Shown here: positions 3,927 to 63,635 of the stretch, in pieces
Layout: the number at the start of each line of letters is the position of its first letter
Position numbering within the stretch: position 1 is the first letter of the stretch
IMG/VR virus record: IMGVR_UViG_3300045685_000034
Coordinates: 4,507-68,506 of that record
Reading direction: 5' to 3' (one strand)
Length of the DNA: 64,000 bases
From: a virus
Translations under genes and position numbers: made by a program
Notes under the pieces: model-generated
What the model saw: only the letters and a program-made list of their open reading frames with translations
Databases searched by the model: none
What the model was told of the DNA's origin: nothing

Positions 3927-4670
3927 ATGTTAAATATCCGAATCGTAGGCAAGCAGTCTAACGGAGATTTTGTTGTCCGACCGATTGATGACAGTAAAGA
4001 GGAGTTAGAATCTCTCGTCAAACAGCGTAAAACGTTGCTGACGGCACAGGCGTTCAATCCAAATAAAGTAACTCGCCCACAACAGAAAATCGCTCACGCG
4101 TTGATTAGAGACGTTGACAGCTATACAGATAATGAATGGTTTATACAAAATACTGAAGATGATTTAAAAATTAAGTTTTGTATTGATCGTGGTTTTTCGT
4201 ATGAGAAGTTATTCTCACTGTCAAACTGCAGTAAAGATTTAGCAACACAGTTTATCTCATGGTTGGTTGAATACTGCTTTCATTATGATATTCCATTCGA
4301 CGGCAAAGATTTGTATTTGGTCCATGACACAAATAGAAAAATGTTCTTGTCAGCACTCCACAATCGCTGCTTTGTAACTCAAGCTCGCCGTCAGGATGCC
4401 GTTCTACACATCCACCATGTAAATGCTGTAGGGATGGGCAAACGTTCAAAAGTGGATCATCGTGGACGCTACTACATGATATTAAGGGCTGAGCTTCACA
4501 ATGAAATACATCAGCTTGGGTACGACGAGTTTTGCAAAAAATGGCATGTAGGAGCGATCAAACTCTCTGATCAACAAGTATTAGACTTCGGTCTTATGAG
4601 TGAAAAGCACATGAAAGAACTGGATGATAATCCAGATTATGAAATAAAAGATTGGCAGTTGCCGGATTAG
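3927..4670 (+). CDS. putative HNHc nuclease (DUF968-like)
   Basis: QQKIAHALIRD, RCFVT..HIHH..AVGMG; homolog at 51333. Confidence 0.8.
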   Translation: MLNIRIVGKQSNGDFVVRPIDDSKEELESLVKQRKTLLTAQAFNPNKVTRPQQKIAHALIRDVDSYTDNEWFIQNTEDDLKIKFCIDRGFSYEKLFSLSNCSKDLATQFISWLVEYCFHYDIPFDGKDLYLVHDTNRKMFLSALHNRCFVTQARRQDAVLHIHHVNAVGMGKRSKVDHRGRYYMILRAELHNEIHQLGYDEFCKKWHVGAIKLSDQQVLDFGLMSEKHMKELDDNPDYEIKDWQLPD

Positions 4671-6952: not shown

Positions 6953-7525
6953 ATGGATCAAAGGAAAAGATTAGCTGAGCTATTAAGCCGGACAGATTAT
7001 TGGACGAACGAAAGAGTCTTTAACGAAGCTGAAAAAATCTATAAAAATATGGTGGCGAAGAAAATGCAAAATAAGAAAAGAGATCGGACAGGCGAAAAGT
7101 ATGGGGAATTCACTATTATTCGACCAGGAGAAATCGACAAAGAATGGGTAGCTAGATGTGCCTGCGGTAAGGAGCGATTAGTGAAGAATCAGAATATGTC
7201 GAAACTCACGCATTGCAAAAGCTGCGCGGCAAAACTTCGAATGCAAAAGCGTACAAAGAAACCTAAAAAGCCGAAGAAAGACAAGTTTACAGAAAGACAG
7301 AACTGGATGGCACCAAAGCGGCCTAAATTCAAATTGGATGTTCTATATGAGTTGAACTACTCTCAATGCAATTTCCCATGTGTAGGAAAATTGATTAATG
7401 AATATGGTAAATCGGCAAGTTTTGAAGTCGTGGAATATCATGACTCGGACAAAGCGGTTTTGCGAATGCTAGGCTATCGTATATCTGTCAAAAAGAAAGC
7501 AGCGTTGGAATTATGCAGGGTATAA
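6953..7525 (+). CDS. hypothetical Cys-motif protein (paralog of 55868-56296)
   Basis: KKRDRTGE.Y, CACG, CKSC shared with the paralog. Confidence 0.75.
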   Translation: MDQRKRLAELLSRTDYWTNERVFNEAEKIYKNMVAKKMQNKKRDRTGEKYGEFTIIRPGEIDKEWVARCACGKERLVKNQNMSKLTHCKSCAAKLRMQKRTKKPKKPKKDKFTERQNWMAPKRPKFKLDVLYELNYSQCNFPCVGKLINEYGKSASFEVVEYHDSDKAVLRMLGYRISVKKKAALELCRV

Positions 7526-7738: not shown

Positions 7739-8749
7739 GTGATAAACGTGGAAATGAAAGAGAGTTTTATAAATTCTGTCATTCGTAACATGGAGCCTGA
7801 ACTTGAAGTTAATCAACTTAAGAAATTGAAAATTGTACTAACGATCAATTTAAATCATGTACGTGTAGAAAAAGAGAACACTGATCTAGTCATATACGAT
7901 GAATCGGGTGACATTGCTGCATACAAACAGTATTTTGTGTCAATGAAACTGCGCAATTTATCTAACGGCACGATAGAACTCGCTATGAGGACGATCGACG
8001 CCTTCCAAAGATCAGTGAAGAAACAATACAAGGACGTAACAACTCAAGATATTCGATTGTACATCGCGTACCGCGACATGAAGGATCATTTATCAAGCGC
8101 CACTTTGAATCGTGAACGCGGGTGCATCTGCAGGTTCTATACTTGGCTGTTCGAGGAAGAATATATCCCTAAGAACCCAGCAAAACGTGTTGAACCTATT
8201 AAGGTGGAGAAACGACTGAAAAAAGCCTTCACACCGATTGAAGTGGAACTAATGCGGAACGCCTGCAGGAAGCCAAAAGAAAAAGCAGTGTTTGAACTAT
8301 TGCTAAGCACGGGTTGTCGAGTCACTGAGTTAACTATGCTAGCAATGGAAAATTACGACCAACAAAGAGGGACCATTACAGTGATTGGAAAAGGCAATAA
8401 GGAGCGCACGGTCTTCGTCAACGCTCGCGCTAAAGTGGCAATTGATAATTACTTAATGATTAAACCGCATTTTGAAGGTTCGATCATTTGCGGCCTTCAT
8501 GGAGTTGGAACACAGATGACTTCGAATGGCATTCAAAAAATGGTCAAAGAGATTGCAAAGCGTGCTCATGTAGCTCACGCGCATCCGCATAAGTTTCGAA
8601 GAACTGCAGCAACATTCGCTCTGAAGAGAGGAATGAGCCTAAACGATGTAAGGCGCTTTCTTGGACACACGGATGTTGATACGACGCTGCAATATATTGA
8701 TACTAGCGGATCGGATCTGAAGTTAGAACATGAGAAGTTTGTCGCATAA
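7739..8749 (+). CDS. XerD-like tyrosine recombinase (no arm-binding domain); candidate cassette recombinase
   Basis: Catalytic set present: TGCRVTEL (R), GKGNKER (K), HPHKFRR (HxxR), LGH, TTLQY; N-terminal core-binding domain. Confidence 0.92.
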   Translation: MINVEMKESFINSVIRNMEPELEVNQLKKLKIVLTINLNHVRVEKENTDLVIYDESGDIAAYKQYFVSMKLRNLSNGTIELAMRTIDAFQRSVKKQYKDVTTQDIRLYIAYRDMKDHLSSATLNRERGCICRFYTWLFEEEYIPKNPAKRVEPIKVEKRLKKAFTPIEVELMRNACRKPKEKAVFELLLSTGCRVTELTMLAMENYDQQRGTITVIGKGNKERTVFVNARAKVAIDNYLMIKPHFEGSIICGLHGVGTQMTSNGIQKMVKEIAKRAHVAHAHPHKFRRTAATFALKRGMSLNDVRRFLGHTDVDTTLQYIDTSGSDLKLEHEKFVA

Positions 8750-45072: not shown

Positions 45073-46221
45073 TTACAAATTATCAATCAACTTCCCCATC
45101 ATATCCGCCGTTTCTTTTTCTTCTTCTTTCAGTACGTCACTGTACACATCTAAAGTAATATTTATATTTTTATGTCCTAAGCGATTAGATACATATTTGA
45201 TATTTGCTCCAGCTTCGATCAAGAAAGTCGCATGAGTATGCCTAAGTCCGTGCACTGTTATATTTGGAACCTTTGCTTCATCACATAACAATCTAAACAT
45301 ATACGTGATTTTAGATTGTTGAATTGGTAGATTTCGAGAACTCAAAATAAAGTAGTCTTCGTCTTTTAGAATTTTTCCTTTTTTAAAAAGCCGTTCTTTT
45401 TCATAAGACTTATATTTTTTGACTAATGCGAGTAGTGAATCATCAAAGTAAACTTTACGAATACTTGTTTTTGTTTTTGGTTTATTCTCACCATAATCTC
45501 CTCGTGTGGAATTGATGTCAAAATATTTCTCAGCTAATTCAATATCTCTCCATCGAAGCCCCATCAGTTCACCTTTTCTCATTCCAGTTTTTAATAGCGT
45601 GAAAAAAATAATTTGGGTTCGGATATTTTTGCCCTCTAAAACCGCTATAAATTTTTGTAGTTCGTCTTTTGTAAACGAACGAACACTATTGCTTGAATCG
45701 AATTTGAAGCCTGTGAGGGTGTTGCTAGGAAGTATTTGATTATTCACAGCAGCATTGATCATTCTCATAACAATTTTATGCCATGTTTGGATAGTAGAAT
45801 CTTTATATTTATTTTCCTGCCGCAGTTTATCAATGAAATTCCGCTTATAAGTGATCTTGTTTAATGATGATAGCTTTTGATTACCAATTAATGGGGAAAT
45901 ATGGTATTTGATAGCAGATTCAATATTTTGTTTCGTCGAGATACTCCAAGCGTCTTGTGCGTAAGGTATCCAAACCTTAATCCATTCATCTATGGTGATG
46001 TTCTTATTTTCAATAAAAGAAGTATTCTGTGTTTCCAACTCATATTGAATTTTAAGAAGAGCTTTATTTGCAGCTCGATCACTATCAAAACCACGCTTAC
46101 TGGCTTCTTTCCGCTGTCCCAGTGAATTGTAAAAGGGAAATCGGTATCCCCAAAAATCACCATTTTTATTTGAATAAGAAAAAACATGCTTGTATTTTTT
46201 TGACCAATTCAGTTTCGCCAT
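45073..46221 (-). CDS. int: tyrosine integrase of prophage 2
   Basis: N-terminal arm-binding segment; TGMRKGE, HGLRHTHAT, LGH, VYS. Confidence 0.96.
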   Translation of the reverse strand: MAKLNWSKKYKHVFSYSNKNGDFWGYRFPFYNSLGQRKEASKRGFDSDRAANKALLKIQYELETQNTSFIENKNITIDEWIKVWIPYAQDAWSISTKQNIESAIKYHISPLIGNQKLSSLNKITYKRNFIDKLRQENKYKDSTIQTWHKIVMRMINAAVNNQILPSNTLTGFKFDSSNSVRSFTKDELQKFIAVLEGKNIRTQIIFFTLLKTGMRKGELMGLRWRDIELAEKYFDINSTRGDYGENKPKTKTSIRKVYFDDSLLALVKKYKSYEKERLFKKGKILKDEDYFILSSRNLPIQQSKITYMFRLLCDEAKVPNITVHGLRHTHATFLIEAGANIKYVSNRLGHKNINITLDVYSDVLKEEEKETADMMGKLIDNL

Positions 46222-46330
46222 ATTTCCACGTCCTTTTACTTGTGTTAAAATAGGCACTGTTGATAAGCCTATAGATTGGTTCTGTTAACATGACACGATC
46301 TGACTCTTAGCGGGGACGGGTCGTGTTTTG

Positions 46331-49398: not shown

Positions 49399-49638
49399 AT
49401 GAATGAATTTAATAACGCAATAAGTGTGAGCGGTTTAGGCGATGACATTAACTCAGCTATGATGCAAAACGCACAGCGACAAGTCATCCAAGAAATTATG
49501 AACGCAGCACAAAACGGTAGAACTGAATGCACTACACAATCAAAAGGAGCAACACCATCTTTTCTAGCACAACTTGAAGAAGAGGGTGTATTCAATATTC
49601 CTAAAGGAAACAGTGTCACCTTATTTTGGGAATGGTAA
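49399..49638 (+). CDS. hypothetical protein
   Basis: RBS AAGGAG. Confidence 0.7.
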   Translation: MNEFNNAISVSGLGDDINSAMMQNAQRQVIQEIMNAAQNGRTECTTQSKGATPSFLAQLEEEGVFNIPKGNSVTLFWEW

Positions 49639-49661
49639 ACAAAACGAAGGGTGGAAGAAAG

Positions 49662-50333
49662 ATGACGGAAAAAACTTTCAACGAAAAAGTTGTATCTGTA
49701 CAAAGTAGTTTGAAGGCTCCTAAGGGTCAATTTAATAAGTTCGGTAAATATAACTATCGGTCCTTAGAGGATATTAACGAAGCAGTAAAACCATTATTGG
49801 CTAAAGAAGGGCTGAAACTAACGATTAGCGATGAGCTTGTTTTAATTGGAGATCGAATCTACGTGAAATCCACTGCACATCTCTCAGATGGCAGTGAGTA
49901 CATCAATGTTAGTGGTTACGCAAGAGAGGCAGAATCTAAGAAGGGAATGGACGAGTCGCAAATTACAGGGACAGCTTCATCATATGCCAGAAAATACGCG
50001 CTCAACGGTCTGTTTCTTATTGACGATACCAAAGATGCTGATACAAATGAAAATCAAAATGAACGAAATGAACGGTCTAAAACTCAAAGCAACAAACGTC
50101 CTCCGCAAGAAAGCAAAGGAACAAAATCAGCTGATAAGACTTCTAAAGAATTATCGAACGCTCAGAGAGATATAGCGATCCAAAAAATGACGGAATTTTC
50201 AAATGTGCAATCAATGACTATCCAACAGGCAACAGAAAAACTGTTTCCATATCTGAAAATCAACTCAAAATTATCAGACCTTACGTCAGATGATTACGGC
50301 GTATTAATGAATTACTTAAATCAACATTTATAA
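49662..50333 (+). CDS. ERF-family single-strand annealing protein
   Basis: LKAPKGQFNKFGKYNYRSLEDI, GTASSYARKYAL. Confidence 0.92.
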   Translation: MTEKTFNEKVVSVQSSLKAPKGQFNKFGKYNYRSLEDINEAVKPLLAKEGLKLTISDELVLIGDRIYVKSTAHLSDGSEYINVSGYAREAESKKGMDESQITGTASSYARKYALNGLFLIDDTKDADTNENQNERNERSKTQSNKRPPQESKGTKSADKTSKELSNAQRDIAIQKMTEFSNVQSMTIQQATEKLFPYLKINSKLSDLTSDDYGVLMNYLNQHL

Positions 50334-53939: not shown

Positions 53940-54265
53940 TGAATTACAAAGAGTTTAAAGAGCTTATGAACGCTGAGGGACTTGAAGAAAGTGAACTTGT
54001 TAAGTTTTACCTAAAGGAAGCAGGCAAGTGTCAAAAATACGCAAAAAAGTTAGAGGCTGTAGAAGCTCGTAGGAACGTCATAGAGAAGCAATTAAGGAAA
54101 AAGGAAGGATATATCTGGTTTGCTTTTTTCACTGCTGTAGACGAAAAAGAACAGGGATTCAGGTACGTTGAAGACGGCGAGAAGGTTTTGCCAGTATTGC
54201 TCCAGCAAATCGAAGACATAAAAGAAAATGCTTATCTCAGAAAGAAGGCCGCTAATGGAAGTTAA
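53939..54265 (+). CDS. hypothetical protein
   Basis: Coupled ORF. Confidence 0.7.
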   Translation: MNYKEFKELMNAEGLEESELVKFYLKEAGKCQKYAKKLEAVEARRNVIEKQLRKKEGYIWFAFFTAVDEKEQGFRYVEDGEKVLPVLLQQIEDIKENAYLRKKAANGS

Positions 54266-54689
54266 GTTCACGGTTCCTGGTCAACCAGTGCCCCAAGGTA
54301 GACCCAGATTTACCACAAAACCATTCATGCGCTCGTACGATCCGCCTAAAAGCGCAAAGTATAAACGGAAAGTAAAAATGTTTGCTGAAAAAATAGCGCC
54401 TGAGAAACCATTGCAAGGCGAACTATATGCGGAAATATTGATCTTTAAAGAGACACTCAAATCATTTAACAAAGCAAAGAAAGTAGCAGCCGAAGCAAGA
54501 GAGTTAAGACCGATTACGAAACCTGACGCTGATAACTATGCAAAAGGAATTTTAGATGCCGTCAAAGGTGTACTTTGGGAGGATGACGGTCAAGTGGTTG
54601 ACCTTGTAACAAGAAAGTTTTATTCAGAAATTCCGAGAGCTGAGATCACGATTAGGGAAATTTCTGATGTACAAGAAAAATTATTTTAG
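54255..54689 (+). CDS. rusA: RusA-family resolvase
   Basis: PVPQGRPRF, KPDADNYAK, DDGQV. Confidence 0.92.
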   Translation: MEVKFTVPGQPVPQGRPRFTTKPFMRSYDPPKSAKYKRKVKMFAEKIAPEKPLQGELYAEILIFKETLKSFNKAKKVAAEARELRPITKPDADNYAKGILDAVKGVLWEDDGQVVDLVTRKFYSEIPRAEITIREISDVQEKLF

Positions 54690-54892: not shown

Positions 54893-55421
54893 GGCAGCGT
54901 TGAGAGATAAAGGACAAGCAAATGATGATACGAAAAAATTACTTTTAGAAGTTCCCGTATCTGCGTTGAAGGGAAAAGTGGAAGAATTGACTGGCTTAGT
55001 TAATCGTAAAGTCGATATCAAATTGATTCCTAGATATGTTTTTTACAAGGCACTTTTTGAAAAATCAACTGGGAAACCAATCGAAACCTATGAGCCTGAC
55101 GAAAAAGGAATTTGGGTCAGACACGAGGAGCAACAAATGAATCTAATTGGATCAAACGATGTGGAAGAAAGAGAATTTGAAATCGAGTTCGATGTCATTG
55201 ATGCCTTCATGAGTGCGACAACTTTAAACTACAAAAAGATTCCTAAACTACAAGCAATTGTGAACCAACTTCTTAACCATGAAAGTCTCGATGATGTTGC
55301 ATTGAGTAATAAAATGAGTTCTTTCGAATTAGAAACAGAGTTAAATGCTGCGCGTATTCATTATGCACCTTATGCTGCTGCATGGGACAAACAGCGTCAG
55401 GAGGAGGAACTAGATGATTAA
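54876..55421 (+). CDS. hypothetical protein
   Basis: ORF with RBS. Confidence 0.7.
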
Positions 55422-55857
55422 TAATGTCGTACTGGTTGGGCGTCTTACTAAAGACCCCGACCTCCGTTATACGGGGAGCGGAACACCAGTTGCCAGCTTC
55501 ACACTAGCTGTTAACCGAGATTTTAAGAACGCCGCTGGTGAACAAGAAGCAGACTTTATCAATTGTGTTATCTGGCGGAAGTCAGCTGAAACATTAGCAA
55601 ATACCGTTCGTAAAGGACAACAAATCGGCGTTGTCGGCCGAGTGCAGACACGTAGCTACGAGAATCAGCAAGGTCAAAAAGTCTTTGTTACCGAAGTTGT
55701 TGCAGAGAGATTCAACTATTTAGAAAAACGCGAAGGAAACTCGAATAGTAGCAACAGTCAGAAACAGTCAAATAATCAACAAAATTTTGATAGAAGTAGC
55801 GATCCATTTTCAGGTTCATCAATTGATATTTCTGATGATGATCTACCGTTCGCGTAG
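55414..55857 (+). CDS. ssb: single-stranded DNA-binding protein
   Basis: [20 protein letters not shown]. Confidence 0.97.
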
Positions 55858-55867
55858 GAGGCTCATT

Positions 55868-56296
55868 ATGGAGTATAAGAAACGTGATCGAACAGGTGAA
55901 ATATATTTTGATTGGACGGTTATTGGTGAAGGGAAAGAAAACAGGACTTGGATTATGCAGTGCAAATGTGGTCGCGAGAAAACAGTAAAAGCGGATAGAA
56001 TGCATGCTTCGAGAAGTTGTTTAAGTTGCAGCAAGAAAGCAACTAGCAAGAATTTAGGCAAGTTTTTATCATCAGTAAATAATCTAGCGCCTAGGCGGTC
56101 AACTCTTAAATTCAATGTTATATATCAAATTGAATACTACAAATGCCTATATCCAGTGTTTGGCAGATTAGTCAACGAGTACCAGAATTCAGCTAGTTTT
56201 GAAGTTGTTGAATGTAACAAAAATGATCAAAGAGTGATTAAGGCTTTAGGAAACAGGATAAATGTTAATAAAAAATATGTAGTTGAAGTTCAATAA
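55868..56296 (+). CDS. hypothetical Cys-motif protein
   Basis: Paralog of 6953-7525. Confidence 0.75.
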   Translation: MEYKKRDRTGEIYFDWTVIGEGKENRTWIMQCKCGREKTVKADRMHASRSCLSCSKKATSKNLGKFLSSVNNLAPRRSTLKFNVIYQIEYYKCLYPVFGRLVNEYQNSASFEVVECNKNDQRVIKALGNRINVNKKYVVEVQ

Positions 56297-56314: not shown

Positions 56315-56623
56315 ATGGACGAACTAATACAAATGATCGAAGAGTGGTCGAAAGAACGCGGAATCAATAAAGCAAATCCTCAAAAACAGATGCTTAAACT
56401 GTACGAGGAGATCGGCGAAACGTCAGCCGCTGTTGTCAGAGACGATAAAGATGCCCTTAGAGACGCGATAGGCGATTCGGTTATAACATTACTCAATTTA
56501 AGTTTGCAAACAGATATGAGCTTGTATGAGTGCATGATGCACGCTTACGGAGAAATCAATGGACGAGACGGCAAAATGATCAACGGTATGTTTGTAAAAT
56601 CGGAAGATTTGAGGATTGGATAG
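56315..56623 (+). CDS. MazG-like NTP pyrophosphohydrolase
   Basis: KQMLKLYEEIGE, DAIGD, EINGRDGKMING.FVK. Confidence 0.9.
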   Translation: MDELIQMIEEWSKERGINKANPQKQMLKLYEEIGETSAAVVRDDKDALRDAIGDSVITLLNLSLQTDMSLYECMMHAYGEINGRDGKMINGMFVKSEDLRIG

Positions 56624-56626
56624 CCT

Positions 56627-56815
56627 ATGCCAAGAAAAATAATCAGCGAGATTGCAGCTGAGTACGGTTATCAGCGGCTTAGAAAATACAGACAATGGGA
56701 TGACGTGCATTATTCTGCTGAAGTCAATGGCGTAGTGATCGTCATTAATATTGCAACAAGAGAATTATATGAGCGGAATCCGTTTACTAAAAAGCTAGTT
56801 AAAAAGGTCCGGTAA
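56627..56815 (+). CDS. hypothetical protein
   Basis: Stop lies in left arm of site T. Confidence 0.65.
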   Translation: MPRKIISEIAAEYGYQRLRKYRQWDDVHYSAEVNGVVIVINIATRELYERNPFTKKLVKKVR

Positions 56816-56831
56816 GTGGGGCAATTAAGTA
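56808..56831 (+). other. 9-6-9 site T (spacer TGGGGC), first of array 2
   Basis: TCCGGTAAG-TGGGGC-AATTAAGTA. Confidence 0.65.
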
Positions 56832-56847
56832 GAAAAAAGGTGATCAC

Positions 56848-57114
56848 ATGACCAATAAATTGCCTACTGTTCGAGTCATTAAAAACACTCATGAAAAACT
56901 CAGAAGGCTGGAAAAACAACTCTCGGAGATAATGAGTGAAAAGGGCTTTGATGGTGGATTCACTTATAGAGCAGATGAATACAATCTTTGCTACGAATGG
57001 GAATATGAGCAAATTAGCATGGTTTCAATCGTTGAAAATCAAAAAGAATTGGATTATCTGCTTGAATCTAGTTTTGATGAAGCTGTCAAATTTTTGGAAG
57101 ATCGAAGTGTTTAA
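56848..57114 (+). CDS. hypothetical cassette gene
   Basis: Lies between sites T and J. Confidence 0.7.
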   Translation: MTNKLPTVRVIKNTHEKLRRLEKQLSEIMSEKGFDGGFTYRADEYNLCYEWEYEQISMVSIVENQKELDYLLESSFDEAVKFLEDRSV

Positions 57115-57115
57115 G

Positions 57116-57139
57116 TCAAGTCACGGAGGAAACAGCCAT
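57116..57139 (+). other. 9-6-9 site J (spacer GGAGGA), degenerate right arm
   Basis: TCAAGTCAC-GGAGGA-AACAGCCAT. Confidence 0.55.
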
Positions 57140-57161
57140 AAATGGAGCGATCAAATAGGTT

Positions 57162-57440
57162 TTGAAGGGAGTGATTATTTTGTTTCTCAAGGGTGCAAAT
57201 ATTGACCGAGAAGAATTATTTCGAATCCTAGTTGAAGACTATGAAAATGTAAAAAGCACATATACAAACACGATGCTAGGGGAGCCAAGAGAGATCACTT
57301 ATGCAAAGGGAAAACTCGATGGCGCATGTATGGCTTTAGGAATTGAATATGAAATCATTGAGGAAAAAATAGTATTCAAAACCTTCATGAGCGATAAGAA
57401 AGTTTTTGAATTACCGTTTAAACCAGAAAAACCGTGGTAA
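57162..57440 (+). CDS. hypothetical cassette gene
   Basis: Lies between sites J and K. Confidence 0.7.
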   Translation: MKGVIILFLKGANIDREELFRILVEDYENVKSTYTNTMLGEPREITYAKGKLDGACMALGIEYEIIEEKIVFKTFMSDKKVFELPFKPEKPW

Positions 57441-57446
57441 TTTTTG

Positions 57447-57470
57447 TCAGGTAACGGAGGATATCAACAA
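57447..57470 (+). other. 9-6-9 site K (spacer GGAGGA)
   Basis: TCAGGTAAC-GGAGGA-TATCAACAA. Confidence 0.68.
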
Positions 57471-57485
57471 GGAAGGAGTTCAATA

Positions 57486-57764
57486 ATGATTGAACGCAGA
57501 ACCAAAGGTTTAAAAGTCGGAGACACTATGTATTCATATGATGGCATGTGGTTTCCGTTTGAATCAATAAAAGCGTATTTAGAATACGATCCAAGTGCCA
57601 CGTCAGTTTTGAAAGGCAAGATAAAGTGTTTCGAAGTGGAAGGAATCTCGGATGAAGATACAGCCTATTTTGATAGGATCGAAGATTATCAAGGTAGAAG
57701 ACCGCATTTCATTGTTGATTCTGTCGAATTGGTGAAAGTTAAAAATGAACTAAAGGTCAAGTAA
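57486..57764 (+). CDS. hypothetical cassette gene
   Basis: Lies between K and L; stop in left arm of L. Confidence 0.7.
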   Translation: MIERRTKGLKVGDTMYSYDGMWFPFESIKAYLEYDPSATSVLKGKIKCFEVEGISDEDTAYFDRIEDYQGRRPHFIVDSVELVKVKNELKVK

Positions 57765-57780
57765 CGGAGGATATTACGGA
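57757..57780 (+). other. 9-6-9 site L (spacer GGAGGA)
   Basis: TCAAGTAAC-GGAGGA-TATTACGGA. Confidence 0.7.
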
Positions 57781-57800
57781 CTTAGAAAGGAAAGTAAAAA

Positions 57801-58022
57801 ATGAGTTTAAGAAGTGATTTAGACAATTTTTTTGAATCTGTAGAGCGTGGTTCAAAACTTTTTCCTTCAACTAGAAAAAGAAAAGAAATTGACGTATGGA
57901 TTGATCCCGATAGTGACATTATTTTCCAAATTGATGAAGAAATAGCTATCTTGTCGATAACAGAAGCTAGAGAATTAGGAAATATATTATTAGATAAATC
58001 TATTGAAGCACTAGAAAATTAA
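57801..58022 (+). CDS. hypothetical cassette gene
   Basis: Lies between sites L and M. Confidence 0.7.
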   Translation: MSLRSDLDNFFESVERGSKLFPSTRKRKEIDVWIDPDSDIIFQIDEEIAILSITEARELGNILLDKSIEALEN

Positions 58023-58046
58023 TCCGTAAACGACCACTATCACGGA
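58023..58046 (+). other. 9-6-9 site M (spacer GACCAC)
   Basis: TCCGTAAAC-GACCAC-TATCACGGA; arms dyadic TCCGT/ACGGA. Confidence 0.7.
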
Positions 58047-58062
58047 GAAAGAAGGTTTTAGA

Positions 58063-58467
58063 ATGATTGATCCAAAATATAAAGCAATCGTCGAAATCGA
58101 AGGCGATAAAACAGATTTTGAATACAGAGGTTTTCAATGCCACATTCGGAGAGTGAATCCTGAATACTCAGGTCATCTGTGTGGTTATGTTGAAATACCT
58201 GCAAATCATCCGGTACATGGAATGGATTATGACCAAGTAGAAGAATTCTATAATTACGAGCTACCAGCTCATGGTGGTCTGACCTTCGCAAGTGAAGTTG
58301 AGAATGCATACTGGATTGGATTTGATTGTGCTCACTCAGGAGACCTTTGTCCTGCTTATCCAGAGGGCGGTCAAATTTTTCGATGGTCAGGGGATTCTTA
58401 TAAAACAATGGGGTATGTTGAACAAAATATTAAAGAGATCGTTGATTTCATGGAGGATAGCAAATGA
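58063..58467 (+). CDS. conserved phage protein
   Basis: GHLCGYVEIP, HGGLTF, WIGFDCAHSGD. Confidence 0.8.
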   Translation: MIDPKYKAIVEIEGDKTDFEYRGFQCHIRRVNPEYSGHLCGYVEIPANHPVHGMDYDQVEEFYNYELPAHGGLTFASEVENAYWIGFDCAHSGDLCPAYPEGGQIFRWSGDSYKTMGYVEQNIKEIVDFMEDSK

Positions 58468-58631
58468 TCCAATATCAGATAAAATACATTGCTCATAACG
58501 ATCGTATAAAGACATGTTATCTGCACGCAAATAGTCGCGAAGAGGTAGAAGAGTCAGTCCGAGTATTGCAAGGGTGTAAGCAATTGATATCTATTCGTGT
58601 CTGGCCAAAAGAACAGGAGGACGGCGAATGA
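58464..58631 (+). CDS. small hypothetical protein
   Basis: ATGA-coupled MIQYQIKYIAH..EDGE. Confidence 0.6.
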   Translation: MIQYQIKYIAHNDRIKTCYLHANSREEVEESVRVLQGCKQLISIRVWPKEQEDGE

Positions 58632-58834
58632 TTAGAGTTTGCGAAGCTTTGCTAGGTCAACCTGAAAAAGTTTCCTTTGTTTCAGAAGAAGAAGCCCTAC
58701 AATTGCGTTTGAAATATCAGTTCAAGATGCTTTTAGAAGGCATATATATGAATGATGTTGATGGACGAGATCAGAAGTTTCAGTTAGTAAAAAACGGCAC
58801 TTTGCTGGGCTACTTTTCAATGGAGAAATGGTAA
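58628..58834 (+). CDS. hypothetical protein
   Basis: ATGA-coupled ORF. Confidence 0.65.
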   Translation: MIRVCEALLGQPEKVSFVSEEEALQLRLKYQFKMLLEGIYMNDVDGRDQKFQLVKNGTLLGYFSMEKW

Positions 58835-58838
58835 TAGC

Positions 58839-58862
58839 TCAGCTAACCACGCCTATAAAGTA
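58839..58862 (+). other. 9-6-9 site N (spacer CACGCC)
   Basis: TCAGCTAAC-CACGCC-TATAAAGTA. Confidence 0.7.
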
Positions 58863-58906
58863 AATTCCCTCAATCAAAATACCTGATTGAGGGAGAGAAA
58901 ACTTTA

Positions 58907-59128
58907 TTAATTTTTCTTACGAATGAGTATTTTGTCAAGTGTGTAGGTCTGTTCTTTTCCTTTGACGAAAAATTCTTCAGGGAATACATCTCCTAACAAT
59001 CGAAAAAGTTCATAGTCATTGTCAGTGAAATGAGAGAAGAATTCAGGAGCATTATTCTTTTTAAGTGTATCTCCACCAATTTTGTCTAATGTCTCATAGA
59101 CAAACATTCTGAGTTCAAAAATAGTCAT
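58907..59128 (-). CDS. hypothetical protein
   Basis: RBS AAGGAGGTG; downstream hairpin CCCTCAATCA..TGATTGAGGG. Confidence 0.65.
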   Translation of the reverse strand: MTIFELRMFVYETLDKIGGDTLKKNNAPEFFSHFTDNDYELFRLLGDVFPEEFFVKGKEQTYTLDKILIRKKN

Positions 59129-59243
59129 ATTAGCACCTCCTTAAAAAATCTTTTTTATTTATAAATACACTATAACAGCAAAGAATACCTCTAAACGCTC
59201 TAAATTATTTTTGAGAAATTAGTTTGATAAAGGGGGAAAGTCA

Positions 59244-60011
59244 GTGAGAGCATTGTCTCTTTTTTCGGGAATCGGCGGATTAGATTTAGCAGCGGAATGG
59301 GCCGGGATCGAAACTGTTGCCTTCTGCGAGAACGCCGATTTTCCCAAAAGAGTATTAAAGAAACAATGGCCAACAGTGCCACAGTTTGAAGATGTAAAAC
59401 AGTTAAATATTAAGACGCTAGAAAGTAGTGGGATAGATGCAAGAACAATTGGAATTATTCACGGAGGATTTCCTTGCCAGCCTTTCTCACTCGCAGGAAA
59501 AGGTAAAGCCGAGAACGACGATCGCTATTTATGGCACGAATTCGCAAGACTCGTTAAGGAAATTCGACCTCGTTGGGTTGTCGGCGAGAATGTACCAGGA
59601 ATTCTTAACCGCGGACTCGAAACAACCGTTAGTGACTTGGAAAAAGAAGGCTACGAAGTTTGGGTTTTCAGTGTTGCAGCTAGTGATATCGGGGCAATCC
59701 ACAAAAGACAAAGGTACTTTATCGTTGCTTGCAACACCCACAGCCAGTCAATCATACAAGAGGATTCGCCCACTTGCACCTTCCGAAGCGAACGGCAAGC
59801 ATGGCAAAGTTCTTCCTGGAAGTATTGGCGAGAATTTCGAGAGCTACATCGGAAAGTACCCGAACCCGGCATTTGTCGAGTGGATGATGGGGTATCCAGA
59901 GAATTGGACAAAAATAGATTGATTGCTTTAGGAAATGCGGTCCAACCGCAACAAGTTTATCCGATCTTTAAAACAATCATGGAAATTGAAAGGATGATGA
60001 GAGCTGAATAA
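59244..60011 (+). CDS. dcm: C5 DNA cytosine methyltransferase, alpha-type subunit
   Basis: LFSGIGG (I), GGFPCQPFS (IV), GENVPG (VI), HKRQRYFIVA (VIII), LGNAV (X). Confidence 0.92.
   Translation: MRALSLFSGIGGLDLAAEWAGIETVAFCENADFPKRVLKKQWPTVPQFEDVKQLNIKTLESSGIDARTIGIIHGGFPCQPFSLAGKGKAENDDRYLWHEFARLVKEIRPRWVVGENVPGILNRGLETTVSDLEKEGYEVWVFSVAASDIGAIHKRQRYFIVACNTHSQSIIQEDSPTCTFRSERQAWQSSSWKYWREFRELHRKVPEPGICRVDDGVSRELDKNRLIALGNAVQPQQVYPIFKTIMEIERMMRAE
59437..59922 (+). CDS. nested alternative-frame ORF, probable beta subunit of the C5-MTase
   Basis: 161 codons wholly inside dcm; ends YPNPAFVEWMMGYPENWT (motif IX-like). Confidence 0.75.
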   Translation: MQEQLELFTEDFLASLSHSQEKVKPRTTIAIYGTNSQDSLRKFDLVGLSARMYQEFLTADSKQPLVTWKKKATKFGFSVLQLVISGQSTKDKGTLSLLATPTASQSYKRIRPLAPSEANGKHGKVLPGSIGENFESYIGKYPNPAFVEWMMGYPENWTKID

Positions 60012-60216
60012 GCTAGAGGAAATCCTCAATAATCCTGACAAATACGATCTGTCGCCAGAAACAATAGACGGACTCAGATCACTACTGAGAGCTTTTGATA
60101 CTAATCCATTCTTTCCCATCGGTAGATATGACTATGCTGAGGAGCATTTGAACCGAATGAAACGGTTAGGACAGATCGAAAGTGATTTGATGCGAAGTAT
60201 TCTAAATGATTTTTAA
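60004..60216 (+). CDS. hypothetical protein (CTG start?)
   Basis: Open frame (L)NKLEEILNNPDKYDL..NDF. Confidence 0.5.
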   Translation: MNKLEEILNNPDKYDLSPETIDGLRSLLRAFDTNPFFPIGRYDYAEEHLNRMKRLGQIESDLMRSILNDF

Positions 60217-60230
60217 AAGGAGGAACTGAC

Positions 60231-60683
60231 TTGTCAAAAATATTAGATGCCTGTTGCGGCAGCCGGATGTTCTGGTTTGATAAGGAAAATCCAGACGTAA
60301 CATTCATGGATTGCCGGCAGTATTACGAAGAACTACCAACAGGCCACGTGGTCAATGTTGATCCAGATATTGTTGCTGACTTTCGAGATATGCCGTTTGA
60401 AGATGACGTTTTTGACATGGTTGTTTTTGATCCGCCGCATCTTATTAACGTTGGTGAAAGCTCTTGGTTGGCAAAGAAATACGGTCGACTAGATGAACTA
60501 TGGCCAGAAGACATAAGACAAGGCTTTGCAGAATGTATGCGAGTTCTGCGGCCGGCTGGAACACTAATTTTTAAATGGAACGAGGATCAGGTTCCACTTT
60601 CTGAGGTGTTAGAGGCTATTGGTCAGCAGCCATTATTTGGAAATAAACGAAGCAAAACACATTGGCTGGTGTTTATGAAATAG
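60231..60683 (+). CDS. small SAM-dependent methyltransferase (probable N6A/N4C DNA MTase)
   Basis: ILDACCGSRMFW, VVFDPPHL, GTLIFKWNE. Confidence 0.88.
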   Translation: MSKILDACCGSRMFWFDKENPDVTFMDCRQYYEELPTGHVVNVDPDIVADFRDMPFEDDVFDMVVFDPPHLINVGESSWLAKKYGRLDELWPEDIRQGFAECMRVLRPAGTLIFKWNEDQVPLSEVLEAIGQQPLFGNKRSKTHWLVFMK

Positions 60684-60684
60684 T

Positions 60685-60708
60685 TCCGATAACCACGCCT
60701 ACAGAAGA
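60685..60708 (+). other. 9-6-9 site O (spacer CACGCC)
   Basis: TCCGATAAC-CACGCC-TACAGAAGA. Confidence 0.7.
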
Positions 60709-60721
60709 AAGGATGAAGGAA

Positions 60722-60943
60722 ATGAATAATATTGATGAAAAGAAAAGTGCATATCTGAAAAAATTTGATCGAGAAAATGATTTATCTGAATTGGGCTGGG
60801 GTGAGTCAAAAAGATACGGTGAAGAAATAGTTGAATTGTTGCAAGAAAAAGAAGGCCTAACATATGAGGAAGCATATGCAAGCCTTCAGTACGCATATAA
60901 CTTATTGAAATACAAATCTAATTTTGTGGAACTTCGAAAATAG
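60722..60943 (+). CDS. hypothetical protein
   Basis: ORF with RBS after site O. Confidence 0.7.
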   Translation: MNNIDEKKSAYLKKFDRENDLSELGWGESKRYGEEIVELLQEKEGLTYEEAYASLQYAYNLLKYKSNFVELRK

Positions 60944-61424
60944 AAACAAACTTGACTGATTTAAAAGAATTTAAATCTACAACTGAAATCTTTGGTAAAT
61001 TGGGCATATTTACAAAGGTTACATCATACAAATTGTGTGGTAATTTATTTTCTTCTTGAAGGTCAGTTACTAAAGAGACCATGTAGGAATTCAATAATTC
61101 TAGATTGTTTTCACTGTTAATAAACATAAAAAACTCTTTAACTAATTCAGTTCCAAATGGCTGACGGATTTTTTTGAACAAATCGATTTGTTTAGTCTCA
61201 TCTGATTGAAGAGAGGTACCCATGTATTCAGGTTCTATTACCCGAGTAAACGGGCTGAATGTTGGGATACAAACATAATCATTGTCAAGGCGAACGAAAT
61301 CGCCATACATGAAAGCATCATCACATTTTATAAGAATTTTTAGTGTTGAATTCTTATAAGGTTCTTTTGTAGAGACTGTTCTTTTGAGAATGAAGTCCAT
61401 GGTTTGTAAATCAGAAATTTTCAT
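60918..61424 (-). CDS. hypothetical moron-like protein
   Basis: Own promoter and leader at 61433-61479. Confidence 0.7.
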   Translation of the reverse strand: MKISDLQTMDFILKRTVSTKEPYKNSTLKILIKCDDAFMYGDFVRLDNDYVCIPTFSPFTRVIEPEYMGTSLQSDETKQIDLFKKIRQPFGTELVKEFFMFINSENNLELLNSYMVSLVTDLQEENKLPHNLYDVTFVNMPNLPKISVVDLNSFKSVKFVSIFEVPQN

Positions 61425-61432
61425 TTTTTCAC

Positions 61433-61479
61433 CTCCTTATCAGTATTTCAGTGGACCACTCACTGATAAGGAGATTATA
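61433..61479 (-). promoter_or_regulatory. TATAAT promoter plus SD-containing leader hairpin
   Basis: CTCCTTATCAGT..ACTGATAAGGAG; matches 812-858. Confidence 0.7.
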
Positions 61480-61514
61480 TCAAATAAAAATAGGTCGAAA
61501 CGCTTTAAATTATT

Positions 61515-61538
61515 TCGACTAACTCAGCCTATCAAGTA
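61515..61538 (+). other. 9-6-9 site P (spacer TCAGCC)
   Basis: TCGACTAAC-TCAGCC-TATCAAGTA. Confidence 0.7.
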
Positions 61539-61554
61539 AGAAAAGAGGTATGAA

Positions 61555-62208
61555 ATGAAACAAGAATTATTAAAATAGATTTACGAAAATAAGGTTGGTA
61601 GACCAAGCGTTTTTGGTCTTGGGACCGTTGAAACAGTCTACATGGTTGATCTTATCGAAATGATTAATGAACTTGAAGAACCACAGGTAACCAACGAGCA
61701 AGCGTGGAATAAGATCGCTGAGACATATCCTGAAACTGCTCAGAACTTGAGGATAACTTTAGATCATGCGGTGTACGGTCATGAGGCTGAACCGCAGAAA
61801 GTCAAAGTGCCAGCGGTTGTGGCTAAGTGGATTTCAAAATGTCGGGAATTAAAGTGGATCTTACCTGACTTACTTGCACCAGAAGCTTTTGAATCAAGCT
61901 TTGCTCGTGATACTGAAGAATGGTTGCGACAAGACAAACAAAATTACGATATTCTAGCTCGTGCTTGGCTAAGCGGCTACGAGGTCGAGGAAGAGCCGAA
62001 GTATCAAGTCAAGTTGAAATTTGGTAGACAGTATCTATCTAAAAATGCTGATGGAAATATGCTTGATTTTTACTCATGCATGGTATTTCCTCCAAGCTTC
62101 TCAAAAAAAGAACTTGAATCAATTGAGGATGGAGCATTTTACAAAGCCGATGGCGACAAAGAATGGATAAATCCAATTATTGAACTTGTACCAGTCGAGA
62201 AAGTGTAG
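61555..62208 (+). pseudogene. DUF1642-family gene with in-frame TAG at codon 8 (ORF resumes, ATG 61642)
   Basis: RBS+ATG 61555, TAG 61576-61578, same frame continues; PQKVKVPAVVA, ARAWLSGYEVEE. Confidence 0.7.
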
Positions 62209-62216
62209 GTGGCGGA

Positions 62217-62624
62217 ATGAATACTAGAGACAAAATACACTCAGCAATAAATGAACATATTGATATTGAGGATACTTATGCATATTTCTTAACTAGGGAA
62301 AAAAGTTCATTTTCAGTTGGAACAGTAACATTAGATGACTTCGAGGAATGGACTGATAGTGATGTTGCTGATTTAACTGATTCGATAATGGAAAAGATAA
62401 ACCCCGAACTCAACGAAAACCAGCAGGTCGTGTTGGAGTGGTTGAAGAAAAAATACAAAACTACTGATATAGAACCAATTGAACTAATTTGGCGACTTAG
62501 GGTTAATTCGAATTCAGATAAATGGAGACTTCAACCTCCATATAAAAATTATCGGTATTTGACTGAGATAGCGCAATTCCAACTCCTAGTAGCCTTCGCG
62601 GAATGGGGAATGAAGCAATGCTAA
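62217..62624 (+). CDS. hypothetical phage protein
   Basis: ELNENQQVVLEWLKK..QFQLLVAFAEWG. Confidence 0.75.
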   Translation: MNTRDKIHSAINEHIDIEDTYAYFLTREKSSFSVGTVTLDDFEEWTDSDVADLTDSIMEKINPELNENQQVVLEWLKKKYKTTDIEPIELIWRLRVNSNSDKWRLQPPYKNYRYLTEIAQFQLLVAFAEWGMKQC

Positions 62625-62785
62625 ATAAAAAATATAAAACTAGATATACCAGCATCGTGCCAAAAGGTTCAATCGGTAAATGTGTGGATGTGATTGATTC
62701 AAAAGTTTTAGCAGTGAGATTAGAGTTTCAGAACGGAGAATCTCTATGGTTTATGAAGAGGGATTTAACGGAGGTGGCGGAATGA
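62618..62785 (+). CDS. hypothetical protein
   Basis: Ends in EVAE linker. Confidence 0.6.
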   Translation: MLNKKYKTRYTSIVPKGSIGKCVDVIDSKVLAVRLEFQNGESLWFMKRDLTEVAE

Positions 62786-62967
62786 ATGTAGACTGCTACG
62801 GAATCATGACATGCGCAGGAGTAGGCAAGCCATGGAAACTATTTCCTGAAACTTTTACTACGGGAAAAGAAGCAAGTGCGTTTTACGTAGATCATTTATC
62901 TAGTGAAGGAAACTTGTTCAGGATAATTGAAATTAACATAGTCAGCCAAAATATGCTGTATCACTAA
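62782..62967 (+). CDS. hypothetical protein
   Basis: ATGA-coupled ORF. Confidence 0.6.
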   Translation: MNVDCYGIMTCAGVGKPWKLFPETFTTGKEASAFYVDHLSSEGNLFRIIEINIVSQNMLYH

Positions 62968-62970
62968 AGA

Positions 62971-62994
62971 TCCGGTAACCGAAGCAATAGAGGA
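62971..62994 (+). other. 9-6-9 site Q (spacer CGAAGC)
   Basis: TCCGGTAAC-CGAAGC-AATAGAGGA. Confidence 0.7.
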
Positions 62995-63007
62995 GAAACG
63001 AGGTGCT

Positions 63008-63457
63008 ATGTTGCAAGCAATCTTTACATTGCGTAGAAAAGGTTTTAACAAAAAAATCAAAGTTGGAGAAATTTTTAACTATAAAGATGAAAAATATGTT
63101 TTGACACACATTGTTGAAATTAAACATTTTTATAGTAGTTCCGCGCGGATGGAAGTGGAAGGTGTAGCCCAGCTAGTTGGTGGTAAATCCGATTTTAGCC
63201 AATATGAAAGAACAAGTGAATTTGTAAGAAAATACCCCAAAGGTGAGTTCACAGAAGAAAATCCACTCTACAGGGTTGGAGACATTTTTGTATTTGATGG
63301 AATTTGCGGTGAAATAACGAATCTTGAATCAATTGAGTTTGAGTTCGTTGACTTAGTAGTTACCTATCATTCAAGATTGTTCCGGCCGTGGAGTGACGAG
63401 GAAATGAGTCAAGCGGTCAAAGAGGATCGACTATCAAAGTTTAAAGTAATAGGTTAA
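63008..63457 (+). CDS. hypothetical cassette gene with internal duplication
   Basis: VGEIFNY / VGDIFVF. Confidence 0.7.
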   Translation: MLQAIFTLRRKGFNKKIKVGEIFNYKDEKYVLTHIVEIKHFYSSSARMEVEGVAQLVGGKSDFSQYERTSEFVRKYPKGEFTEENPLYRVGDIFVFDGICGEITNLESIEFEFVDLVVTYHSRLFRPWSDEEMSQAVKEDRLSKFKVIG

Positions 63458-63473
63458 CAAAGCTATTACCATA

Positions 63474-63635
63474 CAAAAAGACTGCCGCGGTATGAAACGG
63501 CAGTCTATGGCTAGGTGGGGAAGCATGTTTACCTAGCTGCGCACAATTGGTGTCTTCTCAAAAGACACTAAAAGCGTAACAAGTAACCGTTTTAGTTTCA
63601 AGCGCGAACGGTAGTTAAGAAGAAATAAGTTATAA
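63474..63635 (-). ncRNA. putative sRNA with CUUCCCCA loop
   Basis: GCTAGGT-GGGGAAGCATGTTT-ACCTAGC hairpin; AGACTGCCG/CGGCAGTCT terminator with A-run on plus strand; 5' end uncertain. Confidence 0.45.

Follow-up and report, generated by a model that had tools for sequence, protein, structure and literature searches.

A series of 26-bp junction elements appears to split the accessory-gene region of temperate phages of the Enterococcus avium group into seven slots, and we hold with high confidence that these elements are address-coded junctions at which gene modules are exchanged. They are described here from the window, a 64,000-nucleotide (nt) stretch of IMG/VR virus record IMGVR_UViG_3300045685_000034 (positions 4,507 to 68,506), and chiefly from the array that begins at 56808 in the second of the two tandem prophages held by this 69-kb viral record. 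The mechanism that we favour, at a probability of about 0.4, is conservative site-specific exchange between like addresses, with a Xer-like tyrosine recombinase as the leading candidate enzyme.

The element consists of a left arm (TCCGGTAAC), a 6-bp core and a right arm (WATCAAGGAGG). A weight matrix for scoring sites was built from the two arms only, leaving out the core. The sequence-only reading had placed nine sites in prophage 2; all nine stand at the given positions and lie on the plus strand, eight of them as strong copies scoring 18.5-27.7 bits, and the ninth, at 57116, as a decayed copy. The sites are as follows.

56808-56833, plus strand, site of slot S1, core TGGGGC, 21.0 bits; its TAA is the stop codon of the open reading frame (ORF) at 56627-56815
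57116-57141, plus strand, decayed S2 copy, core GGAGGA, left arm TCAAGTCAC, 1.8 bits
57447-57472, plus strand, S2 site, core GGAGGA, 21.2 bits
57757-57782, plus strand, S2 site, core GGAGGA, 18.5 bits; right arm TATTACGGA near the reverse complement of the left-arm consensus
58023-58048, plus strand, S3 site, core GACCAC, 20.1 bits
58839-58864, plus strand, first S4 copy (S4a), core CACGCC, 23.1 bits; similarity to the related locus L038 begins at its TAAC
60685-60710, plus strand, second S4 copy (S4b), core CACGCC, 18.9 bits; similarity to the related locus L026 begins at the first base of its right arm
61515-61540, plus strand, S5 site, core TCAGCC, ahead of the DUF1642 gene, 19.9 bits; contigs of co-resident phages split at 61520
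62971-62996, plus strand, S6 site, core CGAAGC, 27.7 bits

Most of these sites lie 1 nt past a stop codon, and the right arm often doubles as a Shine-Dalgarno sequence (ribosome-binding site) 7-9 nt ahead of a start codon. At 57116 the left arm and core are close to those at 57757, TAAC is replaced by TCAC and the right arm is different. A seventh site (TCCGGCAAC GTCGCC TATCATGTAAC) lies on the same contig, 533 nt beyond the end of the window, and is followed by the same gene block as in prophage 1, namely a 170-amino-acid ORF without family match and then the late region. The reverse strand of the whole window holds just 2 arm-matrix matches of at least 11 bits, and over the window plus 19 related loci, at 12 bits or more, 85 matches fall on the plus strand and 4 on the minus strand. 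The strict pattern TCNNNTAACNNNNNNWAY gives 13 matches against 2.5 expected from shuffles, with 0 of 100 shuffles reaching 13; nine of the 13 are in the small-gene regions of the two arrays, all on the plus strand. In S6 the left arm and core (62971-62983) make a small hairpin (TCCGG TAA CCGAA), unseen in the other slots.

Relatives were collected with the recombinase protein of prophage 1 as query, which returned 19 viral contigs, and with a 17-mer from the S5 site, which added 44 further contigs, about 21 of them with arrays. A 21-mer matched genomes of Enterococcus avium and E. dongliensis, and 25 species genomes of that genus were then searched; the hosts are the Enterococcus avium group. 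A near-identity search of cultured phage records with both arrays gave just one 56-nt match, in an E. gallinarum phage, and no named phage with a close recombinase was found by protein search. Slots were tallied over 29 non-redundant related phage loci with 160 sites, in which the cores form seven classes in a single order, violated by 3 of 128 adjacent pairs.

S1: TGGGGC or TGGAGC
S2: GGAGGA
S3: GACnnn
S4: CACGCC or CACACC
S5: TCAGCC
S6: CGAAGC or CGACCC
S7: GTCGCC

Every slot has 10-20 unrelated flank clusters on each side. Common arms with distinct cores, here seven classes in fixed order, are the arrangement expected of heterospecific cassette exchange. Slot duplications are also present (S2 S3 S2 S3; S4 S4; S6 S6; S7 S7). 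It had first been noticed that the core order of the prophage 2 array parallels that of prophage 1, and ancestral core-coded slots filled with different cargo had been proposed from this. The parallel holds and extends to 27 further loci, and a tabulation of spacer against cargo over these phages finds that cores track slot position. The proposal is strongly supported by the shared order, the unrelated flanks and the homology breaks inside the sites; since the order and the unrelated flank clusters recur over 29 loci, spacer-coded slots are correct and general.

The joints between modules were mapped by comparing same-slot site pairs, grouped by the relatedness of their flanks, for identity in each part of the site.

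Same upstream flank, unrelated downstream flank (74 pairs): left arm 0.93, core 0.93, right arm 0.64
Unrelated upstream flank, same downstream flank (38 pairs): left arm 0.76, core 0.95, right arm 0.90
Both flanks unrelated, as background (1501 pairs): left arm 0.76, core 0.85, right arm 0.65

The left arm goes with the module upstream of the site and the right arm with the one downstream of it, and exchange therefore maps to the core. Two phages in one genome (L075 and L099), whose shared parts are 99.6-99.96% identical, differ by one clean replacement that runs from the core/right-arm border of S2 to the TAAC of S5. At S6 of the window array the upstream flank is 98.6-99.1% identical to L024, L025, L041, L049 and L059, ending at +17 to +27 of the site, and the downstream flank is 98-99.7% identical to L005, L008 and L016, starting at -4 to 0; the two flanks overlap inside S6 only. 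Similarity boundaries of this kind are also found at S4a, S4b and S5, and assembled contigs of co-resident phages split at 61520 and at 62985; the contig breaks at sites in public assemblies are caused by such related, co-resident phages. In several phages, a short conserved sequence stands exactly at the joint of unrelated modules, as is expected of a linker. Among same-slot sites with unrelated flanks the median exact identity is 10 bp, and 3.5% share at least 23 bp. Minimal pairing segments are quoted as 23-27 bp for Red-beta and 31-34 bp for RecA (PMC3945230), and the median lies below these lengths, which counts for a sequence-specific factor.

The genes that bear on the mechanism are the following.

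7739-8749, plus strand, Xer-like tyrosine recombinase of prophage 1, with the catalytic R, K, H-x-x-R, H and Y all present; candidate trans-acting enzyme
45073-46257, minus strand, integrase at the start of prophage 2, the sole tyrosine recombinase found in that prophage
49626-50333, plus strand, Erf-family single-strand annealing protein of prophage 2; candidate enzyme if exchange runs through short homology
54228-54689, RusA of prophage 2
55414-55857, SSB of prophage 2

We propose that modules, each with one to four genes and oriented either way, are exchanged slot for slot with the joint at the core, within a region that extends from the SSB and RusA genes to the conserved block with the 170-amino-acid ORF after S7, ahead of the late genes. 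The arms are common to all slots and the core is specific to each; a recombinase would bind the common arms and complete strand exchange only between sites of the same core, a rule that would keep gene order and block deletions between different slots. We infer that such an enzyme binds or cuts the sites, with the core as overlap region. The best candidate would be the Xer-like tyrosine recombinase encoded just upstream of the first site in roughly a quarter of the arrays of the window's type, and its intact catalytic residues count for site-specific exchange. It would serve the prophage 2 array in trans, during co-residence or co-infection; judged from the sequences, such service is plausible, but so many arrays and genomes have no copy of the gene that an obligatory link is weakened. 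As a whole, a natural heterospecific cassette exchange by a trans-acting phage Xer-like enzyme, confined to the same 6-bp address on a seven-slot platform, is a tentative proposal that falls short of an even chance.

The distribution of the recombinase bears on this proposal in several ways. The original observation that no XerD-like gene precedes the prophage 2 array was borne out, as a tblastn search of the window with the prophage 1 recombinase matches 7739-8746 only, and the rest of prophage 2 within the window holds no recombinase other than the integrase at 45073-46257. An array without a nearby recombinase gene, as in prophage 2, is the usual state. Conversely, every recombinase homologue of at least 52% identity with enough downstream sequence is followed by an array. 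Lineages with a 53-59% identical recombinase have the left arm TCCACTAAC and the right arm T[TA]GAAAGGAG, with cores shifted by one or two bases in the same order (CAAGGA, CACCAG, TCAGCA, CGACGC, GTCGGC), and a 52% identical relative has a third site type; the arms therefore change together across slots while the addresses persist. Diverged-type arrays without recombinase also exist, and therefore site type tracks host or lineage, not presence of the gene. In a family-wide scan of 134 genomes, the diverged-type pattern occurs in only two species, plus one match in genome G002 that looks like chance. Direct repeats with identical cores are found in 0 of 20 arrays with a recombinase in cis and in 5 of the 21 that have none (p = 0.048, Fisher test); some of these events are not independent of one another, and in four of the loci counted as recombinase-less the upstream sequence does not reach far enough to show whether the gene is present. 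This distribution, like the concerted change of the arms, favours a sequence-specific factor. Site quality with and without the recombinase was also compared, but the hint of weaker arrays in genomes without it was set aside, because distance from the training set confounds the comparison. Between L075 and L099 the border of presence of the recombinase gene is a ribosome-binding-type sequence. In L016 (8001-8804) the Xer-like gene appears interrupted, the match ending at about residue 265 and similarity resuming past a stop codon; the gene may be a pseudogene, or the assembly may be wrong at this point.

Several observations weigh against exchange by this enzyme. The Xer-like gene is present in 1 of 8 S5-anchored viral arrays with enough upstream sequence and in about 5 of 19 arrays of the window's site type in species genomes, which leaves about three quarters of that type without it. 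At E <= 1e-60 no Xer-like homologue was found anywhere in 5 of 11 array-bearing genomes, one of which, E. dongliensis K4, has three arrays. Among five near-complete array phages without the Xer-like gene, four carry an integrase only, and the fifth carries an unrelated tyrosine recombinase of about 320 amino acids as plain cargo between S4 and S5 (L104:2123-3103, the record of L026). A site flanking the recombinase gene itself was looked for and none was found, and public assembled contigs contain no clean excision or circle joint over 56500-63500. About half of the mapped divergence points fall in the arms or at their outer edges, not in the core. The dyad symmetry of the arms is weak, with 0.40 mean complementarity at the best axis and 2 of 9 arm pairs above 0.5, and part of the complementarity is due to the ribosome-binding GGAGG. 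Finally, a second junction motif, GGTGGCGGAATGA, is as mosaic as the slot sites, though it has no arm-core-arm design. Its three exact copies in the window (0.04 expected) have overlapping stop and start codons and lie between S5 and S6.

62208-62220, plus strand, GGTGGCGGAATGA junction with stop/start overlap; similarity blocks to other phages begin or end here
62773-62785, plus strand, second GGTGGCGGAATGA copy in the prophage 2 array
11805-11817, GGTGGCGGAATGA junction

Over 34 related loci there are 37 copies of this motif, with differing genes on both sides, and unrelated upstream proteins therefore share the same last four residues.

That plain identity of 13-19 nt, as in GGTGGCGGAATGA, also marks exchange points speaks for the strongest alternative, in which the elements are short conserved linkers and modules are exchanged by short-homology recombination through the phage annealing proteins (Erf, Sak), RusA, SSB and host RecA. 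The common arms would then result from slot duplication together with stop-codon and ribosome-binding constraints, and the instability of direct repeats would have driven the cores apart. The machinery, unlike the Xer-like gene, is encoded by both window prophages, each with an annealing protein (Sak in prophage 1, Erf in prophage 2), an HNHc_6 nuclease, RusA and SSB. Overlaps in the recent events of the window measure 18-27 bp, near the Red-beta minimum; divergence points spread over the whole site and the arms have little symmetry; slots have been duplicated, and the cores CACGCC, GTCGCC and TCAGCC look related. The closest precedent, the PeSL cassettes of T4-type phages (PMC2839356), also belongs here. 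The typical same-slot identity of 10 bp is, however, well under the minimal segments for efficient pairing. Arms common to seven slots are left unexplained and would favour harmful deletions, and this account likewise fails to explain the concerted change of arms around slot-specific cores in diverged lineages and the absence of identical-core repeats from recombinase-bearing arrays. We consider short-homology exchange a real possibility and on balance somewhat improbable.

The sites might instead be punctuation for expression or protein binding (a stop signal, start context or regulator site, like stoperators or start-associated sequences), marking joints only because no other sequence has to be retained in a recombinant. 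Their position on the coding strand, mostly 1 nt past a stop codon and with a right arm that is often a Shine-Dalgarno sequence, fits this account, as does the presence of the array region in RNA libraries; stoperators, too, are asymmetric sites in intergenic gaps that point in the direction of transcription (PMC3029335). Punctuation does not account for the fixed order of slot-specific cores, and sites are kept beside reverse-oriented cargo with no forward gene after them (58839, 9846, 12145). They are moreover restricted to one region of 6-8 kb, with none in the immunity region of either prophage, and the arms are the same in both although the two repressors are unrelated. A reading of the sites as promoters was rejected, no promoter-like match being found on them. 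Taken together, these points make punctuation unlikely. Action of host XerC/XerD or XerS on the sites, in the way suggested for pdif modules on Acinetobacter plasmids, would account for arrays in genomes without the phage recombinase and for site types that differ by host species, and pdif modules offer a precedent for Xer sites as the boundaries of gene modules, but it is very improbable, since all sites are direct whereas pdif pairs are inverted, arm symmetry is weak, no 11-6-11 dif-like pattern is seen (as judged from known Firmicutes dif sequences rather than the host's own dif), and dif-like repeats in direct orientation would be lost each time the cell divides.

The cargo of the prophage 2 array, for which site-specific exchange remains our preferred mechanism, is made up of the following modules and genes.

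56848-58022, plus strand, four single-gene cargo modules without family match
58063-58834, plus strand, three-gene cargo module with overlapping stops and starts (genes 58063-58467, 58464-58631 and 58628-58834)
58907-59128, minus strand, small gene followed by a terminator-like hairpin, between the S4 copies
59244-60011, C5 cytosine methyltransferase, between the S4 copies
60231-60683, second S-adenosylmethionine (SAM) methyltransferase, between the S4 copies
60722-60943, plus strand, S4b-S5 cargo gene, phrog_17280
60918-61424, minus strand, S4b-S5 cargo gene
61642-62967, plus strand, S5-S6 cargo, comprising the DUF1642 gene (61642-62208) and three small overlapping genes

The four consecutive intervals between 56808, 57116, 57447, 57757 and 58023 contain one ORF each, as the sequence-only reading had it (56848-57114, 57162-57440, 57486-57764 and 57801-58022). 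The two of these ORFs that lie between GGAGGA sites are unrelated to each other, and the arrangement is therefore not a tandem gene duplication. The gene at 58063-58467 matches phrog_2164 and, more weakly, a MazG-like phrog. The C5 cytosine methyltransferase gene, with a nested ORF at 59437-59922, covers only positions 1-175 of the 324-position Pfam profile, that is the N-terminal half; the remainder may lie in another frame, through a frameshift or as a split enzyme. In the DUF1642 gene of prophage 2 (61556-61645), the eighth codon is an in-frame TAG and the long ORF restarts at 61642; the gene may be 5'-truncated or broken. At 61538 related contigs differ by 1 nt. Two hairpins, one of terminator type and the other a TGGGGAAG hairpin, occupy 63479-63537, past the S6 cargo gene and ahead of the gene that follows it.

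Prophage 1 adjoins the host sufB gene and carries its own integrase and a cI-type repressor, and prophage 2 extends from its integrase past the end of the window. After the SSB gene, both prophages encode proteins that are 40% identical (6953-7525 and 55787-56296), zinc-ribbon-like with a CxC...CxxC arrangement and without Pfam match, which are present in only some related phages. This gene was rejected as a universal partner of the arrays, being missing from most array loci. The stretch 56500-63500 is present in twenty public runs, six of which are metatranscriptome libraries; because most of these runs are ant metagenome samples, the host is placed in ant-associated communities.

Models of phage mosaicism set targeted exchange at conserved linkers against illegitimate joining at random with subsequent selection, and in most cases no linkers are seen. 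In the arrays described here, an ordered linker series of common design and with position-specific cores is present throughout a phage family, and recent swaps are mapped to a few bases, which opens the matter to direct experiment in a tractable Gram-positive host. Should a recombinase read the addresses, the arrays would represent a new class of system for gene cassettes, a synteny-preserving counterpart to integrons, and would offer natural orthogonal recombination sites for engineering. If not, they would be among the clearest cases known to us for the linker version of the modular theory.

Full-text literature searches returned no description of the motif or system. Among published systems, the PeSL cassettes in the hyperplastic regions of T4-type phages come closest; they have no addresses. 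PeSL elements consist of a promoter and a terminator stem-loop, are all alike and recombine by homology to give mini-circles (Arbiol et al. 2010; PMC2839356). Both are repeated short intergenic elements among small non-essential genes, bounding insertions, deletions and replacements between related phages and serving as points of modular shuffling; the sites described here differ in being 26 bp long and unstructured, with a slot-specific core, a fixed order and position-for-position exchange. Conserved boundary (linker) sequences have been reported for lambdoid phages in connection with the modular theory, as cited in PMC3029335. They share with the present sites a short conserved sequence exactly at the joints of unrelated modules, and the difference lies in an ordered series of seven, with a common arm-core-arm design, that extends over a phage family. 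Stoperators are binding sites of the immunity repressor that are scattered over the genome and vary together with that repressor, and they lack a position-specific core (PMC3029335). Like them, the sites are asymmetric, short and intergenic, many per genome and oriented with transcription, but they are confined to one region; a stoperator reading was rejected on the strength of the shared arms beside unrelated repressors and the absence of sites from both immunity regions.

Integrons resemble the arrays in their rows of small, unrelated and mostly co-oriented genes bounded by recombination-type sites; a tyrosine recombinase heads some arrays, and arrays without integrase exist in both. In the present system the recombinase is Xer-like and co-directional with the array, and slot identities are fixed, instead of one site per cassette. 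Integron attC sites are hairpin palindromes of about 57-141 bp, whereas the elements here are 26 bp with the low complementarity given above and no folded attC hairpins. Integron cassettes are promoterless with a single ORF; here modules have 1-4 genes, several of them reversed, and some cassettes carry their own signals, such as the hairpin after 58907-59128. The prophage 1 recombinase scores 67.5 bits with the integron integrase model TIGR02249 (NCBIfam) against a cut-off of 265, and its best models are XerA, XerC and XerD, all under their cut-offs. An integron reading was rejected, the integrase model being far under its cut-off and prophage 2 having no such gene.

In pdif modules the site pairs are inverted and the sites resemble dif, while all nine sites of the prophage 2 array are on the plus strand, plus-strand matches prevail 85 to 4 over related loci, and the sites are direct with weak dyad symmetry. 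What the two have in common is that Xer-type sites bound the gene modules and that no dedicated recombinase gene lies beside them (PMC7399989). The arrays also resemble an engineered system in having common arms with differing spacers, so that a segment between two different sites could be swapped without deletion. That system is cassette exchange with heterospecific lox or FRT sites, which uses known enzymes and symmetric arms and in which only like spacers recombine. The present sites are natural, their arms are asymmetric, and their candidate enzyme is known from sequence alone.

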